NCBI GenBank assembly: GCA_965220685.1
Contig: CBDCQR010000004.1
Location: 14,542-78,541 of the forward strand
Source: Alphaproteobacteria bacterium
GTDB taxonomy: Bacteria; Pseudomonadota; Alphaproteobacteria; Bin65
Length of the DNA: 64,000 bases
Direction: 5' to 3'
Positions within the stretch are counted from its first letter, which is position 1; every line of letters begins with the position of its first letter. Both the position numbers and the translations under genes were made by a program. Positions 6,144-55,571 of this stretch are shown piece after piece. The notes under the pieces are model-generated. The model saw nothing but the letters and a program-made list of their open reading frames with translations, did not search any database and was not told the DNA's origin.

Positions 6144-7355
6144 CTACCGCTCGGACCCACTCGTCGCTGCTGCACTTTCGCCGTGCAGGAAGTCCCCGGC
6201 AATGCTGTCCGAGACCCGCGCCGCGGAAGCCCTGACCGAATCCCGCTCCAGATGCGCATAGCGCGATGTGGTCCGGATCTGCCTGTGGCCGAGCAGCTTT
6301 GCGATCGCCGGCAGGCTCTCGCCGAGCGCCAGCGCCCGCGAGGCGAAGGAATGACGGCAGTCGTGGATACGGACATCGTCGAGCCCGGCGCGTTTCCGCA
6401 CGACCCGCCACGGGTCGTCCAGGTTGACCATGTGCGTACCCGGCTTCCGGCCGGGGATGACCCAGGGACTGTCCAAAAGGCGCGGCAGTTCCTCCAGCAC
6501 CCGGACCGCCGGAGGCGACAGCGGCACCGCGCGCGGACCGGTCTTGCTGTCGCCGAGCCGGAGCTCAGCCGCCGCCAGGTCCACGTCCTGCCATTTCAGG
6601 GACAGGATCTCGCTCTTGCGGCACCCGGTCAGCAACAGCAGCCGGATCGCCGCCGCCGCGTGACCGGACACCCCGCCGTCCGCCGCCGCCCGGTCGAGCA
6701 CCGCCCCGAGACGGCGGAACTCCGTATCGGTCAGGAACCGCTCGCGCCGCCGCTCCCGATGCCGGACAATGCCCCGGCACGGGTTCGTGCCGTCCGGCAC
6801 CATCCCCCAGGCCGCCGCTGCCCCGTACATGCGCGAGAGCAAAGCCACCGCGTGGTTCGCCGCGTAGGGGGCACCGCTCATCCGGGCATGGAACACCGCC
6901 ACGCCTTCGCGTTCCACCGCCAGCAGCGGGAGCCTGCCGAACGCGGGCAGGATGTGCCTGTCGACCAGCTTCCGCATGGCCACCGCCGACGACTCCCTGC
7001 AACGCACCGCGACATGCTCCTCCATGTAGCGCGCGGCCAGGTCGGCCACCGTCGGCCCGCCTGCGAGCCCGGCCGGCAACGCTTCCGCAACCGGTTCCTC
7101 CCCCGCCTTGATCCGGTTGACGATCCGCGCCGCCCGGCGGCGCGCATCGTCGGCGCCGATCACCCCGTGCCGGCCCACCGTCACCCGCACCGACTTCCCG
7201 TCCGCCCGGCTCTGCACGACATACATCTTTGTGCCCGAGGGATAGACCCTGACACCGAACCCCGGCAGGTCCCGGTCCCAGAACACCGTATCCTTCTTCA
7301 CCGCGAGCGCCTCGACCGTGCGCCGCGAGATCGACCGCCGGTTCAGCTTGGCCAT
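6144..7355 (-). CDS. Tyrosine recombinase/integrase with N-terminal arm-DNA-binding domain (copy 2)
   Basis: Start MAKLNRRSISRRTVEAL at 7355; WDRDLPGFGVRV arm domain; catalytic LTGCRKSEI, HDCRHSFAS, LLGH, TSRYAH. Confidence 0.92.
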   Translation of the reverse strand: MAKLNRRSISRRTVEALAVKKDTVFWDRDLPGFGVRVYPSGTKMYVVQSRADGKSVRVTVGRHGVIGADDARRRAARIVNRIKAGEEPVAEALPAGLAGGPTVADLAARYMEEHVAVRCRESSAVAMRKLVDRHILPAFGRLPLLAVEREGVAVFHARMSGAPYAANHAVALLSRMYGAAAAWGMVPDGTNPCRGIVRHRERRRERFLTDTEFRRLGAVLDRAAADGGVSGHAAAAIRLLLLTGCRKSEILSLKWQDVDLAAAELRLGDSKTGPRAVPLSPPAVRVLEELPRLLDSPWVIPGRKPGTHMVNLDDPWRVVRKRAGLDDVRIHDCRHSFASRALALGESLPAIAKLLGHRQIRTTSRYAHLERDSVRASAARVSDSIAGDFLHGESAAATSGSER

Positions 7356-8548
7356 GGCGAACCCTCCGCCTCTTCCGCCGCCAGGAGGTCGGAACCGATG
7401 CTGCCGCCGACCTTCGCCGCCGAGGCCCTCTCCGTGTCGCGCTCCAGATGGGCGTAGCGGGCGGTGGTCTCGATCCTGCTGTGACCCAACAGCTTCCCGA
7501 TCATGCTCAGGCTCTCGCCGAGCGCCAACGCACGGCTCGCCCAGGAGTGCCGCAGGTCGTGGATGCGCACCCCGCCGACCCCGGCCTCGGCCAGCACCAG
7601 GGCCCACGGATCGGAGATGTTCACAAGACGGGCGCCCGGCTTGCGCCCGACGATCACCCACGGATTGTCCGGAACCCGGGGAATGCTCTCCAGCACGCCC
7701 CGCACCGCCGGCGTCAGCGGCACCATGCGCGCGCCGGTCTTGCCGTCGCGCAGCCGCAACTCGCCAGCCGCCCGGTCCACATCGTCCCAGCGCAGCTCAA
7801 GCACTTCGTTGCGCCGGCATCCGGTCAGCACCAGAAGCCGGATCGCCGCCGCCGCACGCCGCGACACCCTTCCCATGCATTCCAGCCGATCGAGCGCGCG
7901 GCCGAGGCGGCGGTACTCCGCGTCCGTCAGGAACCGCTCGCGCGGCCGCGTCCGGTACGGGCGCACCGCGCGGCACGGGTTCGGCCCGGCCTCGCGCAGA
8001 CCCCATTCCACGGCCAGCGAAAGCATCTTGCCGACGATCTTGAGCGCCATGTTCGCCGCATGCGGCGCGCCGCGCATCGCATAGTGCAGGTCCGTCACAT
8101 GTTCGCGCCCGACCGCGCCGACCGGCATCTCTCCCAGAACGGGCAGGATGTGTTTGTCGAGCGCCCGGCGGTAGACCGCCGCGCTCGACGCCCTGCAGCG
8201 CGCCGCCACATGGTCGCGCATGTAGCGCTCCGCGACGACCGCCATGGTCGGCGCGGGTTCCGGCGCCGGCGGCAGCGGATCCCGGCCCCGCTTGATGCGG
8301 TCGATGGCCTCCGCCGCGCTGCGGCGCGCCTGCTCGGCGGAGACGTCGCCGTGCCGTCCCAGCGTCGCGCGCCGCGAACCGCCGGGGCCCCGGCTCTGGA
8401 CCACATACTTCTTCAGGCCCGAGGGATAGACCCTGACGCCGAAGCCCGGCATATCCCGGTCCCAGTAGACGGCATCGCGGCCTTCGACCGACAATGCCTC
8501 GACGGTGCGTTTCGTGATCGCCGTTTCCTGGCGTTTCGGCATCGGCAT
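7343..8548 (-). CDS. Tyrosine recombinase/integrase with N-terminal arm-DNA-binding domain (copy 1)
   Basis: WDRDMPGFGVRV; catalytic LTGCRRNEV, HDLRHSWAS, LLGH, TARYAH; overlaps the start of copy 2 by 13 bp. Confidence 0.92.
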   Translation of the reverse strand: MPMPKRQETAITKRTVEALSVEGRDAVYWDRDMPGFGVRVYPSGLKKYVVQSRGPGGSRRATLGRHGDVSAEQARRSAAEAIDRIKRGRDPLPPAPEPAPTMAVVAERYMRDHVAARCRASSAAVYRRALDKHILPVLGEMPVGAVGREHVTDLHYAMRGAPHAANMALKIVGKMLSLAVEWGLREAGPNPCRAVRPYRTRPRERFLTDAEYRRLGRALDRLECMGRVSRRAAAAIRLLVLTGCRRNEVLELRWDDVDRAAGELRLRDGKTGARMVPLTPAVRGVLESIPRVPDNPWVIVGRKPGARLVNISDPWALVLAEAGVGGVRIHDLRHSWASRALALGESLSMIGKLLGHSRIETTARYAHLERDTERASAAKVGGSIGSDLLAAEEAEGSPWPS

Positions 8549-8783
8549 CCCCGCGGTTGCTTCCTATCCGCTTGCCGGCTCCGCTAAATCCGTAAGCACC
8601 AAGCAAGCGACCGGCTTCCAGTCGGCGTCGATACTGGTGGATTGGAGTCGGCGATGCAAGTGCGAAATGGAGACAGATGAATTAAAAATATTTCTATATA
8701 TCAACAGGTTATCATAGAATTGCCGTTACCTGCCCGTCCCTGGCTTACCTAGTCTCCCATTGGCGAATCCATTCCAAATACTA

Positions 8784-8949
8784 CACCATGAAATGTCAGG
8801 ATTCGTCATGTTCGGCTTTCGTGCCGTCCCGTTCGCCCTCGTCCGCCATTCCGACCGGAGCCGCCCATCGGTCGGGATGACGCGGAGGAAGAGCGCCCGG
8901 TCGCGGTGACGGAAGGGAAGGTCGCGATGTGTCATGAAATGTCATGATG
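8784..8949. repeat. Two clusters of 10-bp-phased (T/C)GTCATGANN repeats flanking a short hairpin element
   Basis: 8784 CACCATGAAA-TGTCAGGATT-CGTCATGTTC and 8920 GGTCGCGATG-TGTCATGAAA-TGTCATGATG, with CATTCCGACC...GGTCGGGATG between them; same motif family as 53598-54386. Confidence 0.75.
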
Positions 8950-8991
8950 CGGTGCGGGACCACGGGAGCTCGGCCGAATCAGTAATTTTTC

Positions 8992-9020
8992 ATAATATAG
9001 GGTTTATTCCAAATATTCAA
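8992..9020 (-). promoter_or_regulatory. Putative sigma70 promoter pointing toward the repeat clusters and integrases
   Basis: Minus strand reads TTGAAT-N17-TATTAT. Confidence 0.5.
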
Positions 9021-9198
9021 GATGACCGGTCATTTTTTTCAGGAGCCGACGGCGGCGTGGGACATCGCGGGCGAGGCGCGTTCTTGCGGCGGTACGCGGC
9101 GGCGCGCTAGGTTCCGGCCGATGCCGGAGATCGGGCGGCGGACTCCCGCCGGGCCATCTTCGGGCAACGGAAAACCGATCAGGGAAGGGAGTGCCCCG

Positions 9199-9834
9199 AT
9201 GAAGCTCTACTACGATCCGCGCACGGTGAACTGCCGCAAGGTTGTGGCCGGTTTCAAGCATATGGGCGTGGAATTCGACTCCGTGGATGTCGACTATTTC
9301 ACCCAGGGCCAGCAGTCGCCGGACTATATGGCGATCAACCCCAACGCCGCCCTGCCCGCGCTGGTCGACGGCGATCTCAAGCTCTGGGAATCCAACGCGA
9401 TCCTGCAATACGGAGCGGACAAGGTGGGCGCCGAAGCGGCCTATCCGTCCGACCTGGCGACTCGGGCCGACGTCAACCGCTGGCTGCTCTGGGAATCGAG
9501 CGCCTGGTTCCCGACCTGCTACGTCTACCTGGTCGAGAATGTCGTGAAGCCGATCCTCGAAGCGGAGCCGGACCAGGCGATCCTCGACGGCGAGGGGCCG
9601 AATTTCCACAAGCACGCCGCGATTCTCGACGACCGGCTCGACGGGCAGGACTGGCTGTGCGGCACGCCGGAGCCGACCATCGCCGACATCGCGGTCGCAT
9701 CGCCGATGCACCTGCACCAGTATCAGCAGCTCCCGCTCGGCGAGCACCCGAACCTGCAGGCCTGGATGGGCCGGATGGAGGCGCTGCCGGCGTGGGAGAG
9801 CACCGACGTCGCGCCGCTGCTCGGCCTCGCCTGA
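9199..9834 (+). CDS. Glutathione S-transferase family protein
   Basis: [41 protein letters not shown]; AGGGAAGGGAG RBS upstream. Confidence 0.9.
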
Positions 9835-51143: not shown

Positions 51144-52421
51144 ATGGAGGCTCCGCCTTTCCGAATCCACGTCTGCCAGCCGGAGCGGCGCGAGCCCGGA
51201 TTCATCGTCCTGCCGGTCGGCAAGGCGGTGCGCGCGATTTCCCGCGAGTCCGTCTTCGAGGCGCTGGTCGCGCTTGACCGCGAGGGCAGAATCGCCTGGC
51301 AATGGCGCTCGCCCGGCAACCGCTCGCTGATGGATGTCAAGCGCACGCCGCGCGGCACGCTGCTCGCGATGACAACCGACGGCTGCATCCTCGAGGTCGC
51401 GCAATCGGGAGAGACGATCCGCGCATGGTCGTCGCCGGGCCGCGGCCCGCAGGCCGAGAACGCAATATCCGTCGATACCCTGTATTTCCACCATTCGGTG
51501 CAGGAACTGCCCGACGGCAATTTCGCCGCCCTGTCGCTGGCGACGCGGACCTTCGACGATTACCCGCTGTCCGAGGCCGACATCGCCGGGCCGCGCGGGC
51601 AACGGCTGCTGGCCGGCGACACGGTCGTCGAGTTCACCGCCGACGGCACGGTGGTGCGCGAACACGACTTCTTCGACATCATCGACCCGCACCGCATCGG
51701 CTACGGGCTGGACGCGCCATTCTGGACCATCGCGGAGGTCGCGCCCGGCGCCGCCGACTGGACCCATGCCAACGGGCTGATCCACGATCCGTCGGACGAC
51801 AGCTTCATCGTTACGGTCCGCCACCAGGACTGCGCCATCAAGATCGACCGGCAGAGCGGCGCGCTCGCATGGATCCTCGGCACGCCGGACGGCTGGCGCG
51901 AGCCCTGGGCGTCGAAACTGCTGAAGCCCGCCGGCCGGCCTGACTGGTTCTGGCATCTGCACGATCCGAGCCTCATGCAGGACGGCTGCCTGCTGCTGTT
52001 CGACAACGGCGAAAGCGGCGCCTTCCCGCCGGCGCCCAAGCGGGACATCGACAGCCTGGTCAGCCGCGCCATCGCCTACCGGATCGACGAGCGGGCGATG
52101 ACCTGCGCGCCGGCCTGGTCGTTCGAAGGGCCGTATTCCATGTATGTCAGCGGCGCGCACGAACTGCCGCAGACCGGCAATATCTTCGTCACCTTCGGCG
52201 GCATCACGCTGACCCGGCCGGAGGGCGCGCGCACCGACCTGCCGCCGAAAGGCTACGGCAGCGCGGAGATGTTCGAGGTGACGCGGACCGATCCGCCGGA
52301 AATCCTGTTCCACGCCGAACTGAACGACCGTGACGGCCCCAAGGGCACGGATTCCGAAACCGGCTGGGCGATCTTCCGCGCCGAACGGGTGCCGCCGGAC
52401 TGGTTCGGCGGCAGCCCGTGA
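51144..52421 (+). CDS. Aryl-sulfate sulfotransferase (ASST)-like beta-propeller
   Basis: FHHSVQELPDGN, DWTHANGL..D, VRHQD, WILG, LFDNG. Confidence 0.78.
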   Translation: MEAPPFRIHVCQPERREPGFIVLPVGKAVRAISRESVFEALVALDREGRIAWQWRSPGNRSLMDVKRTPRGTLLAMTTDGCILEVAQSGETIRAWSSPGRGPQAENAISVDTLYFHHSVQELPDGNFAALSLATRTFDDYPLSEADIAGPRGQRLLAGDTVVEFTADGTVVREHDFFDIIDPHRIGYGLDAPFWTIAEVAPGAADWTHANGLIHDPSDDSFIVTVRHQDCAIKIDRQSGALAWILGTPDGWREPWASKLLKPAGRPDWFWHLHDPSLMQDGCLLLFDNGESGAFPPAPKRDIDSLVSRAIAYRIDERAMTCAPAWSFEGPYSMYVSGAHELPQTGNIFVTFGGITLTRPEGARTDLPPKGYGSAEMFEVTRTDPPEILFHAELNDRDGPKGTDSETGWAIFRAERVPPDWFGGSP

Positions 52422-52467
52422 TGCATCCGCGGATGGCGGCGGGAAACCGAAGGCAGGGGAGGCGGCG

Positions 52468-53586
52468 ATGACGACCGGCCTGGTCTGGGACGAGCGCTTC
52501 ATGTGGCACGACACCGGCACCCGCTTCGGACCTATCGGCGGGCTCGACTGGATGGAGCCCGTCGAGCCGCCGGAAAGCGCGCCGGGCAAGCGGCGGATCA
52601 AGAACCTGCTCGACGCCAGCGGCCTGTCGCGCGCGCTGGTCATGCTCGCGCCGGCGCCGGCCGGCGACGCCGACCTGCTGCGCGTCCACACGCAGGCCCA
52701 TCTCGACCATGTCCGGGCGGTCAGCGAATCGGGCGGCGGCAACGTCGCCCGGCGTTTCGCCACCACCCGGGTCGGCGCGGACGGCGAAAGGATCGCCCGC
52801 CTCGCTGCCGGCGCCGGGATCGCTGCGGTCGACGCCGTGCTCGCCGGAACGGTCGACAACGCCTATTGCCTGCACCGGCCGCCCGGCCACCATGCCGAGC
52901 CGGACGAGGCCATGGGCTTCTGTATCTACGCCAACGCCGCGATCGCCGGCAGCCATGCGCTGGACGTGGCCGGTCTTGAGCGCATCGCCTTCGTCGACTG
53001 GGACGCCCATCACGGCAACGGCACCCAGGCAGCCTTCCGGCGCGATCCCCGGGCGCTCACGATCTCGCTGCACCAGGATTGCGCCTTCCCGCCGGGCAGC
53101 GGGGCTGTCGACGAGATCGGGGAAGGCGCGGCCGTCGGCACCAACATCAACATTCCCCTACCGCCGGGCTCGGGCGAGGGCGCCTATCTGGCAGCGTTCG
53201 AGCGCGTCGTCCTGCCCGCGCTCCGTGCCTTCCGGCCCGACATGATCTTCGTGCCCAGCGGCTTCGATTCCGGCGGCCACGACCCGCTCGCCCGCATGAT
53301 GCTGACCAGCGAGAGCTTCCGCCGGATGACGGAACTGCTGCTGGCGGCGGCCGGCGACCTGTGCGGCGGGCGCCTCGTCCTGCTCCACGAGGGCGGCTAC
53401 GCGCCCCATATCGTGCCCTTCATGGCGCTCGCGGTCTTCGAGGCGCTGAGCGGCGAAAAAACCGGCGTGACCGACCCCTTCCTGCCCGCGCTCGCGGGCA
53501 ACCCCTGGCAGGCCCTCCAGCCCCACCAGGACCGCGCCGTCGCCGCCGCCGAGCGGGCCGGGCTGGCCGCCCTGCTGGCGCGCTAG
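52468..53586 (+). CDS. Class II histone deacetylase-like amidohydrolase
   Basis: RPPGHHA, GFCIYAN, DWDAHHGNGTQ, GFD, HEGGY. Confidence 0.9.
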   Translation: MTTGLVWDERFMWHDTGTRFGPIGGLDWMEPVEPPESAPGKRRIKNLLDASGLSRALVMLAPAPAGDADLLRVHTQAHLDHVRAVSESGGGNVARRFATTRVGADGERIARLAAGAGIAAVDAVLAGTVDNAYCLHRPPGHHAEPDEAMGFCIYANAAIAGSHALDVAGLERIAFVDWDAHHGNGTQAAFRRDPRALTISLHQDCAFPPGSGAVDEIGEGAAVGTNINIPLPPGSGEGAYLAAFERVVLPALRAFRPDMIFVPSGFDSGGHDPLARMMLTSESFRRMTELLLAAAGDLCGGRLVLLHEGGYAPHIVPFMALAVFEALSGEKTGVTDPFLPALAGNPWQALQPHQDRAVAAAERAGLAALLAR

Positions 53587-53653
53587 CCGTCTGCGGGTGT
53601 CATGATGTGTCATGTTTTGTCATGATTCGTCATGGCATCCCTCTCCACTCCAA

Positions 53654-53783
53654 CCGTCATTCCGACCGTAGCCCCGGATTGAATCCGGGGCGGAGTGGAG
53701 GAATCTCGTCGCAGGACTCCTGCGCCATTTCGATGGATCGAGCCGGGATCCCTCCACTCGCTGGCGCTCGGTCGGGATGACGG
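53654..53783. repeat. REP/RPE-like palindromic element, family D
   Basis: CCGTCATTCCGACC...GGAGTGGAGGAATC...GATCCCTCCACTC...GGTCGGGATGACGG. Confidence 0.8.
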
Positions 53784-54059
53784 TGATGGATGTGTCATGA
53801 GATGTCATGGTTCGCCGCGGTCTGCGACAAAACAGACCGGTCTATACACCGCACTTTTTTTGCTCCTCCCACCGCAAAATCCGCAGAAATCAGCCATTCC
53901 CGCCCGACGGCCGCGCACAAACGGCGAAATGCTGTGTATAATTTCCCATGCCGTCCACACCGGGCGGGCACGCCGATACGGCGGCACGGGTGCACCGGGA
54001 TGTTCGAGACGCGTCATGAAATGTCATGATTCGTCACGATCCTGCATTTCCACTCTTCT

Positions 54060-54159
54060 TGCCGCCCCGGACCCGATCCGGGGCCCAGTGGCGACCCGAA
54101 CGGTCTCAGCCTGTGGCCCCTGGACCCCGGATCTCCGCTGCGCTCCGTCCGGGGTGGCA
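54060..54159. repeat. REP/MITE-like palindromic element, family B
   Basis: Closely similar to 17831-17938. Confidence 0.8.
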
Positions 54160-54422
54160 AAGGGGAGTGGCGGTAAGTTCGGGATACGTCATGAAATGTC
54201 ATGATTCGTCGCGATTCTCCGTTCCGGCCAATTCCCGGCCTCAGGTCCGGCAGCCTCTCTCCGGCTGGATTCTTCTGTGAAAAGGGCACCGACCGAATCC
54301 CCCTCCCCCCAGGGGAGGGGGACTCGAACAGGGCCGGTGAGGGGGATGTCCGGCGGTGTCAGGAAATGTCATGTTTCGTCATGGCCGGGTCCGGCGGCAG
54401 GGCCGATCCGCTCCGGCCTGAT

Positions 54423-54437
54423 GTTCATATAATGTTC
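54423..54437. promoter_or_regulatory. Alphaproteobacterial LexA (SOS) box
   Basis: Exact GTTC-N7-GTTC (GTTC ATATAAT GTTC). Confidence 0.7.
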
Positions 54438-54453
54438 TCTCTTCGTTTGTCAA
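54426..54453 (-). promoter_or_regulatory. Putative sigma70 promoter overlapping the LexA box, pointing into the repeat array
   Basis: Minus strand reads TTGACA-N16-TATATG. Confidence 0.55.
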
Positions 54454-54516
54454 CCCACAAACCGCGCAAGGCGACGGACCGGCCGTTCGGACCGGCAATC
54501 CCTCCGCCGCCTCTGG

Positions 54517-55365
54517 CTACCGGGTCAGCACCGCCCCCGGATCGCCGACATCGACCACGCCGATGGCGCGGTGGGCCTTGTAGCCGAGCACTTCCTGGAC
54601 GCGCTTCGGGAAGCCGCGGACCTGCTCCAGCGGCACGGTGAGAAACATGTTCTCCTCCGTGCGCAGCCAGCCGACGACATAGCCGACGAACATGCCGCGC
54701 CGCGCCTCGGCCGCCGTCCGGTTGGCGCCGCCGCCGTGGATCGTCGAGCCGAGATAGAGCAGCGCCGAGCCGGCGGGCATCTCGGCCTGGAGGATTTCCG
54801 CCGGCTCCGGCTCGCGGCCGGCCGGCCACAGATGGCTGCCGGGCACGACCTGCGTGGCGCCGTTCGCGGCCGTGAAATCGGTGAGCGCGACCATCGCCTC
54901 GACCTCGAGCTGGGCGCGCGGACCCCCGGCGATCCGGGCGGCGATCAGCGGTCCGAAGCGCCAGGCGTCCTCGTCGCGGTGCAGGCGCTGGGCGGTCTCG
55001 CCGGGCCGGATCTCGATGAACTGGCCGGTGTTGAACAGGTAGTCGAGGCAATGGGGCAGCAGATAGTGGTCCGCGAGGCCGGTCAGCACCGGCGACTGCA
55101 TCGCTTCGACGAAGGCCGCCGACTTGCCGGGCAGACCGTCGAAACGCACGGTCGTCGCGCCGTAGAATTCCTCCATCGCCGGCATCGTCGGACGGCGCAC
55201 GCCGGGCGCCAGCGTTTCGACAATCCGGTCGAAATCGGTATTCAGCGCCTCAAGCTGCCCCGGCGTCAGGAAGCCGTCGACGACCGCGGCGCCGTCAGCA
55301 TCGAGCGCAGCGATGAAGTCGTCAAGCGGGGCAGTTGCGGACAATCGGGCAAGGCTGGCGGTCAT
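54517..55365 (-). CDS. Phytanoyl-CoA dioxygenase (PhyH) family Fe(II)/2-oxoglutarate oxygenase
   Basis: QRLHRDED, ALTDFTAANGAT.VVPGSH, HGGGAN, RTEEN. Confidence 0.9.
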   Translation of the reverse strand: MTASLARLSATAPLDDFIAALDADGAAVVDGFLTPGQLEALNTDFDRIVETLAPGVRRPTMPAMEEFYGATTVRFDGLPGKSAAFVEAMQSPVLTGLADHYLLPHCLDYLFNTGQFIEIRPGETAQRLHRDEDAWRFGPLIAARIAGGPRAQLEVEAMVALTDFTAANGATQVVPGSHLWPAGREPEPAEILQAEMPAGSALLYLGSTIHGGGANRTAAEARRGMFVGYVVGWLRTEENMFLTVPLEQVRGFPKRVQEVLGYKAHRAIGVVDVGDPGAVLTR

Positions 55366-55571
55366 TGCGGTCTCCGCTCCTGCAAACGGCAATGCGCCAT
55401 TTTTCCACGAGTCGGCGGCAAGGGAAACGGCGTCGACAGAACCGATGGGTCGGGCCCGCCGCCAGCACCGCGGTCGCCGCATGCATCCGGCGTTTGCCGC
55501 GCCGCCGGCTTGCCGGACACGCCGGCCCCGCCTATCGTCGGCGAGAAATCCGGGCTAGAGGAAACGGAGCG

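Follow-up and report, generated by a model that had tools for sequence, protein, structure and literature searches.

We found that the intergenic region at 53598-54453 of the analysed DNA (a stretch of 64,000 nucleotides, hereafter the window) carries an array in which copies of a phased decamer site (X) alternate with four repeat cassettes (A-D) and which ends in a LexA-box promoter module (P). We tentatively read this array as an SOS-promoted platform of attachment sites, genus-specific, oriented, intergenic and unoccupied at this locus, and sequence comparison brings this reading close to probable, though not past it. The anatomy and the statistics of the system are solid; its mechanism is what we infer from them.

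Results

Anatomy of the array

The window corresponds to C4:14542-78541 of the source genome G000 (4.05-Mb assembly, 67% G+C). Its assembly was confirmed by short-read contigs from the source sample, and cassettes A and B were also found in a second sample; the apparent 'joints' in read contigs derive from other repeat copies and are therefore uninformative. The array is held by 930 non-coding bases between two convergent genes, and its parts are listed in Table 1.

Table 1. Features of the array locus and of the integrase island in the window.
Feature	Position	Strand	Remarks
int2, P4-type tyrosine integrase	6144-7352	-	Arm-DNA-bind_3 (PF13356) + Phage_integrase (PF00589)
int1, P4-type tyrosine integrase	7343-8548	-	Arm-DNA-bind_3 (PF13356) + Phage_integrase (PF00589)
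Second array of the window	8787-8946	+	X 8787-8810, shortened A-type hairpin, X 8931-8946; 5' edge joined to island
Histone-deacetylase-family gene	52330-53586	+	Pfam search; 5' flank of array
X site 1	53598-53635	+	Four phased decamers GTCATGATGT GTCATGTTTT GTCATGATTC GTCATG; abuts deacetylase stop codon
Cassette A, long hairpin	53636-53791	+	Core 53653-53784; terminal inverted repeats CCGTCATTCCGACCG/CGGTCGGGATGACGG
X site 2	53792-53812 (cluster 53794-53809)	+	Two decamers
Cassette D, unstructured repeat, 3-5 copies	53813-54010	+	Carries AGACCGGTCT (53834-53843) and a T-run (53855-53861)
X site 3	54013-54038	+	GTCATGAAAT GTCATGATTC GTCACG
Cassette B, REP-like double hairpin	54039-54187	+	Core 54059-54160
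X site 4	54188-54213	+	GTCATGAAAT GTCATGATTC GTCGCG (last decamer degenerate)
Cassette C	54214-54357	+	Conserved ends tttctccgtttccggcc ... ggggactcgaac; C/G-run hairpin 54285-54335
X site 5	54358-54383	+	GTCAGGAAAT GTCATGTTTC GTCATG
P module (putative LexA-box promoter)	54423-54453	-	Leftwards into array; TTGACA 54453-54448, 10 nt, GAACATTATATGAAC 54437-54423
PhyH dioxygenase gene	54517-55482	-	Pfam search; 3' end faces array

A preliminary description of this locus, made from the letters of the window, had reported five clusters of 2-4 decamers with an exact 10-bp period recurring every ~170-220 bp. All five GTCATG clusters were found in place with that period, at start-to-start distances of 165-219 bp, and the pattern GTCATG-N3-Y-GTCATG (at most one mismatch) gave 11 matches in the window against 0.19 expected. 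The spacers had been taken for three palindromic families or unique sequence. Cassettes A, B and C are indeed hairpins: DNA folding gave A (z = -6.96) as a long hairpin from end to end, B a z of -3.18 and C a strong central C-run/G-run hairpin. The supposedly unique D, without significant structure, proved to be a repeat family. The LexA box GTTCATATAATGTTC (GTTC-N7-GTTC on the plus strand) lies at 54423-54437, forty bases past the last X; it had been said to overlap TTGACA and is in fact 10 nt away from it. Nor is the locus singular, being one of about 30 arrays per genome, and all of its parts (decamer cluster, four cassettes, promoter box) belong to dispersed repeat families.

The view that the region holds no credible protein gene was borne out. 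ORFs of the array region had no Pfam match, and a permissive Rfam search of 52500-55500 returned no relevant family. The long ORFs begin at ATGs of the repeat: since TCATGA is palindromic and the period is 10, every X supplies ATG and TGA in three frames on both strands, so that spurious array ORFs begin with MTFHD, MTNHDIS or MKCHD. Candidate gene cassettes in the long spacers of relatives were rejected as artefacts of the same kind, beginning at ATGs of X. No small hydrophobic ORF is conserved downstream of the LexA promoter and no ORF is shared between copies; cassette D holds a frame of 19 aa that, on reading the sequence, is interrupted in the paralogue.

Consensus, copy number and phyletic range of X

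The 26-nt site X is GTCATGAAATGTCATGATTCGTCATG. Paired phased GTCATG hexamers (at most one mismatch) were matched 159 times in G000, in 47 clusters, and merge to 95 sites. These form 24-30 arrays, within each of which all X sites share one orientation. All arrays of G000 are intergenic and none lies inside a long ORF; a census of gene orientation near arrays was unreliable owing to antisense ORFs in this high-G+C genome. The consensus of 179 sites (.g..gtc.gga.gT GTCATGAAAT GTCATGATTC GTCATG) consists of three good direct decamers behind a degenerate one, lacks dyad symmetry and has 38% G+C compared with 67% for the genome.

With up to two mismatches, the 26-mer was present in 10 of the 13 species of one genus, an uncultured group of Rhodospirillaceae associated with sponges. 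None of 28 genomes from outside the genus had it, and reversed-pattern controls gave no match. When 185,579 species genomes were searched for exact matches, 74 loci emerged, nearly confined to MAGs of sponge-associated Rhodospirillaceae/Alphaproteobacteria, and IMG/VR viral contigs contained no X. The 26-mer is thus a specific clade marker for sponge metagenomes. It also causes assembly breaks, because many copies sit at contig ends.

X pairs flanking one cassette were as identical (0.872) as random X pairs (0.876) and therefore give no sign of recent neighbour copying at insertion, and on this ground a CRISPR- or TSD-like duplication of the neighbouring X with each insertion was rejected. The uniform identity of ~87% looks more like constraint on a recognised site. 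As a part of the platform reading, and with the same tentative standing, X is a candidate protein-recognition and attachment site.

Direct repeats, three or four in number and spaced by exactly 10 bp, could also be expected of an operator array, in which an OmpR/PhoB-like or MraZ-like factor would bind X and control the neighbouring genes, and TGTCAT in X presumably resembles a Pho-box half-site. This explanation is very improbable: the arrays examined sit between convergent 3' ends, not in promoter regions, and recur as many as five times at one locus; their period of 10 differs from the 11 of Pho boxes, and the neighbouring genes share no function.

Cassettes between X sites

All three hairpin cassettes also occur outside arrays. 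Genome-wide, ~33 copies were counted for the A core and 56 BLAST hits for the B core, the majority beyond the arrays and inside other flanking modules, and both cores also occur in relatives at X-free loci, which makes A and B independent hairpin (MITE/REP-like) elements. Within arrays, the orientation of cassettes relative to X is constant (A, 12 of 12 copies; B, 8 of 8; C, 7 of 7). The linkers from X to the A hairpin vary from 18 to 31 nt and in sequence, and the B core of the locus is 95% identical to non-array copies compared with 87% to the best array copy. Both observations fit independent nesting rather than transfer of [X + cassette] units, and an oriented insertion of the hairpins by their own means is conceivable. 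The hairpin cassettes, which the preliminary description considered to be collected by the array, may have been gathered by recombination or nested by their own transposition. A REP/RAYT system was rejected for G000, where the Y1 (RAYT) transposase PF01797 is absent, as it is from 11 of the 13 genomes of the genus.

Spacer lengths range from 37 to 600 nt overall and group at 140-200 and 240-260 nt; simple G+C hairpins of 37-67 nt form a minority. Few cassettes carry genes; one of these, between X sites, is a vapB-vapC pair with its own TTGACT-N17-TATAAT promoter (C15:854900-856150, minus strand), after which C- and A-type cassettes come next. A 1.6-kb version of cassette C (C12:137704-139376) was considered as an autonomous form and rejected, being a cassette with an inserted IS. 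This 1.4-kb IS interrupts the central G/C hairpin of C between two X sites, appears to encode an integrase-type DDE transposase and has three more copies (99.7-99.9% identical).

Cassette D begins with a recurrent module, TTAGAC-AGACCGGTCT-N10-T(6-9) (53834-53861 in the window), of which G000 has ~27 copies (for example C15:209351 and C9:340430). A perfect palindrome of 10 bp with a T-run behind it, the module does not make a hairpin terminator; 12 loci have it no more than 600 nt from P, in constant relative orientation. It is also found near one end of a 600-bp non-coding repeat (C15:209229-209828) with at least 10 other copies (85-95% identical), one of which stands between an X site and a P module (C2:31677-32308).

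A predicted LexA-type promoter reads into the arrays

The P module consists of TTGACA, 9-11 nt and GAACATTATATGAAC, and a profile search found 20 copies in G000; GTTCAT(A/T)TAATGTTC followed after 9-11 nt by (T)GTCAAG has 17 exact occurrences. Its -10 element is non-canonical and must fall inside the LexA box, and for this reason a simple sigma-70 consensus scan missed P. GTTC-N7-GTTC is the LexA site of alphaproteobacteria. The lexA gene of G000 (C15:608474-608662, minus strand) is preceded, 77 bases upstream, by GTTCTACTTTAGTTC-N9-GTCAAG (C15:608739-608775) reading towards the gene, so that the lexA promoter has the layout of P, namely TTGAC, ~9 nt, GAAC-N7-GAAC. The earlier proposal of a LexA-type promoter is strengthened by this match, and there is sequence-level support for P as a predicted LexA-repressed promoter with TTGACA directed towards the box.

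P lies within 700 nt of the 3' side in 14 of the 30 arrays of G000 and in 44 of 76 arrays of relatives, 62 of which had enough flank to judge. As proposed from the single locus, it points into the array: it does so in all 58 arrays, with none opposite on the 3' side and only three modules on the 5' side. Of the P modules, 14 of 20 in G000 and 44 of 47 in relatives adjoin arrays. Searched with a fixed 11-nt spacer, P occurred in 8 of the 10 X-bearing genomes and in none of the three species of the genus that lack X.

Downstream of P there is a convergent gene in 11 of 17 cases and a metabolic gene in the other 6, and no repair gene was found among the six co-directional genes. P as an ordinary promoter of the SOS regulon was accordingly rejected. 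The ~20 predicted high-affinity LexA sites that P modules provide per genome could titrate LexA. A second LexA-type promoter, TTGACA-N14-GAACAATAAAAGAAC, was seen in relative G012 (locus L132, G012:C5, ~7560-7650) beside an island-occupied X, reading away from X into a small gene.

A promoter that always reads into arrays, hairpin segments alternating with AT-rich linkers, and a convergent gene facing 11 of the 17 P modules would also suit a DNA-damage-inducible non-coding RNA gene. P would then drive a transcript of stable hairpins and AU-rich single-stranded X segments, the latter serving as RNase E-type processing sites or sites for an RNA-binding protein, and the product would be an antisense or sponge RNA, at the present locus antisense to the 3' end of the deacetylase gene. 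Array fragments do occur in contigs of one sponge metatranscriptome; these are sparse and directionless, stem from a relative strain and could partly reflect DNA. Further points against such a gene are the missing Rfam match, the unstructured cassette D and the integrase junctions, which it leaves unexplained. Since cassette content differs between loci and species, no conserved RNA exists. We regard this explanation, with all its parts, as improbable.

Integrase islands end at X

The tandem genes int1 and int2 (6144-8548) stand at the end of an island, 240 nt from the X at 8787. Such tandem P4-type pairs, sometimes trios, are amplified in the genus (1-40 matches per genome), and integrases more than 55% identical to int1 were found in X-bearing genomes only. 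With its varying cargo, the tandem integrase pair is a mobile two-integrase module that proliferates; G012 has up to 40 integrase matches with several identical copies.

Three copies of a 2.7-4.9-kb integrase module in G012 are 97-99.7% identical up to '...gctgctttgttttg'. The edge reads '...ctttgttttg' joined directly to 'TCATGA...', and beyond it each copy meets a different X and different flanks; the sequences past the module end, TCATGATTCGTCATG, TCATGACTTGTCATGATCCGTCATG and ctattATTCGTCAaG, are each an X or a degenerate X. Because identical modules are followed by three different X sites and flanks, X is part of the target, and the element stops at the 5' edge of this site. An X 240-470 nt upstream of the outer integrase, pointing away from it, was found in G000 (the window and C16), G004, G007, G008 (twice) and G012, where five of ~17 integrase modules have an X at this distance. 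In at least five species, the 5' edge of an X is the exact end point of tandem integrase modules, and in four species P, X, int1 and int2 follow in this order, all co-directional.

An empty/occupied pair was obtained at the locus of the second array of the window, which carries the island in G000 and none in G002. The empty site of G002 reads X-59 nt-X-A'-X upstream of the same GST gene, and the island junction of G000, '...tactacac' joined to CATGAAATGTCAGGATTCGTCATG, equals the 5' edge of the second X. The island ends at X bear 4-7 bases resembling the spacer part of the decamer (ATGAAAT, TTTT, ATTC), suggesting that crossing over took place within the first decamer of X. The segment at ~8550-9185, left of the GST gene (9199-9834), differs in all eight related genomes and is, on this comparison, a hypervariable integration hotspot.

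The distal island junction was not found in G000 or the relatives searched, and a core shared by both sides was not recovered. Islands flanked by X on both sides were rejected, no second X lying within 23-40 kb. No X remnant was seen at the left ends of elements, and no empty sites were found for the module copies of G012. No integrase is near most arrays, that at 53598-54453 included, and in G005 a single partial integrase match stands against 28 X sites.

Arrays differ between species by whole units

Comparison of spacer content among relatives, as the preliminary description had proposed, showed orthologous arrays differing by [X + cassette] units, which means that change is by whole units. 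The orthologous locus in G002 (L011) reads X(4)-D-X-C-X-P, and the window array has an extra [A + X] and [B + X] compared with it; in G012 (L014) the locus holds the A element only, without X. At C1:84006-84415, G000 exceeds G002 (L092) by one [X + A] unit. At 7 of 14 comparable loci a relative has an array and G000 has none. X-to-X recombination is presumably behind the gain and loss of units, and would explain it together with the fixed orientation.

A selfish or neutral mosaic of nested, decaying non-autonomous repeats, like E. coli BIMEs or rhizobial RIMEs, has to be weighed against this. X might there bind a host DNA-binding protein, the LexA box would be a fossil without role, and islands would insert since the repeats are tolerated and recognisable targets. 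Every component is dispersed, the A and B cores mostly outside arrays and within other modules; half of the orthologous comparisons show an array present versus absent; an IS sits inside one C cassette; the variable X-A linkers argue for independent nesting; and recent duplication of X has left no sign. The mosaic nevertheless leaves unexplained the orientation rule of P and X (58 to 0), the fixed orientation of cassettes, the conservation of the 26-mer across ten species, and the exact placement and co-orientation of the integrases, and a REP-type transposase is absent from 11 of the 13 genomes. Taken with all these parts, it is unlikely, with a real minority chance of being correct.

Discussion

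The reading of the array as an attachment-site platform would work as follows. Arm-domain tandem tyrosine integrases carried by islands would recombine at the 5' edge of X, and arrays would gain or lose whole [X + cassette] units via X-to-X recombination; the cassettes would be mostly dispersed hairpin (MITE/REP-like) elements whose orientation is held constant. LexA would repress P at the 3' end of the array, and upon DNA damage P would transcribe through the array towards its 5' edge. Docked islands would place their integrase genes co-directional with P, and island recombination would thereby come under SOS control. LexA binding, transcription, integrase recognition of X, X-by-X movement of cassettes and host benefit are the steps that we infer.

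Counting for this platform are the abundance of X far above chance and its restriction to one clade, the exact island/X junctions, one empty/occupied pair and the orientation rule of P and X. Counting against it, the consensus scan misses P, most arrays lack an integrase and only about one third of the G012 integrase modules adjoin X. Cassettes of 37-260 bp are, moreover, too short for easy circularisation as duplex DNA. Since islands dock at the promoter-distal end, read-through across the hairpins would be needed.

The preliminary description had offered a recombination or target array as one interpretation, which gains support from integrase islands whose junctions coincide exactly with the 5' edge of the repeat. 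The genome-wide scan that it proposed placed the motif in clustered, oriented arrays, many of them with P and hairpins and a minority with integrases. Its interpretation as a whole is partly supported.

A bolder version, which we consider rather doubtful, is a dispersed, multi-locus analogue of the integron, in which LexA-repressed promoters and triple-decamer sites would let integrases dock islands and shuffle small cassettes, such as hairpin elements and toxin-antitoxin pairs, across ~30 loci per genome. If the platform reading is true, these symbionts would possess dozens of standard landing pads wired to the DNA-damage response, and the movement and induction of islands in unculturable bacteria would be explained. 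It would be a third cassette-array architecture of tyrosine recombinases, after integrons and dif modules, and its site, lying on the chromosomal side, would be made up of direct repeats in helical phase. Should the arrays be selfish repeats, they still follow an unusually strict grammar of intergenic repeats.

Comparison with known systems

The literature was searched for both orientations of the motif and for MITEs with LexA boxes, and no description of such a system came up. The arrays work most like integrons or dif-module arrays, yet fail defining features of both. With integrons they share an end promoter with predicted LexA control, an oriented array of sites and cassettes, gain and loss of units, an occasional toxin-antitoxin cassette and tyrosine recombinases. 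However, attC is a folded imperfect palindrome (R''-L''...L'-R'), whereas X consists of three direct decamers; integron cassettes are mostly promoterless ORFs, in contrast to the mostly non-coding hairpin and repeat elements without Pfam hits found here; and there is one array there compared with ~30 per genome here. IntI lies beside attI, but no integrase lies at the array 53598-54453, and the recombinases here are P4-type with arm domains, in tandem on islands and at the promoter-distal end.

In XerCD/dif systems (IMEX; pdif of Acinetobacter plasmids) a short conserved site likewise flanks varied modules, including toxin-antitoxin modules, and arrays arise by site-specific integration at a repeated site. 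The dif site is a 28-bp dyad (11-6-11) bound by XerC and XerD, whereas X has no dyad and runs in one direction, and most modules here are non-coding and measure 140-260 bp. BIME/REP elements and rhizobial RIMEs are similar in being intergenic palindromic units with short linker motifs, often between convergent genes, genus-specific and present in many copies; BIMEs differ in their alternating orientation and RAYT, in place of the fixed orientation without RAYT seen here. We know of no BIME that has direct repeats in phase as its linker, ends in a LexA promoter or serves integrases as a target in this way.

As in CRISPR arrays, a repeat of 26-36 nt alternates with other sequence and a promoter-bearing 'leader' stands at one end, but the spacers are repeat families of 37-600 nt instead of uniform unique sequences (~21-72 nt), X is a direct triplet and there are ~30 loci per genome; the early judgement that the array is unlike CRISPR holds in spacer size, uniqueness and locus number. 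The P module resembles alphaproteobacterial LexA operators in its GTTC-N7-GTTC box overlapping the predicted promoter, with TTGACA 10 nt off in a lexA-like layout, and departs from them in having no DNA-damage response gene downstream (0 among 17).

P4-family integrases also have their gene beside the junction and an N-terminal arm domain that binds short direct repeats (cf. P'1-P'3 of phage lambda). They usually target tRNA genes at the 3' end, with arm sites on the element; here it is the chromosomal side that bears the direct repeats, and a multicopy repeat that serves as target. In its junctions at independent insertions and in the empty/occupied pair, X is like the attachment site of a tyrosine integrase.
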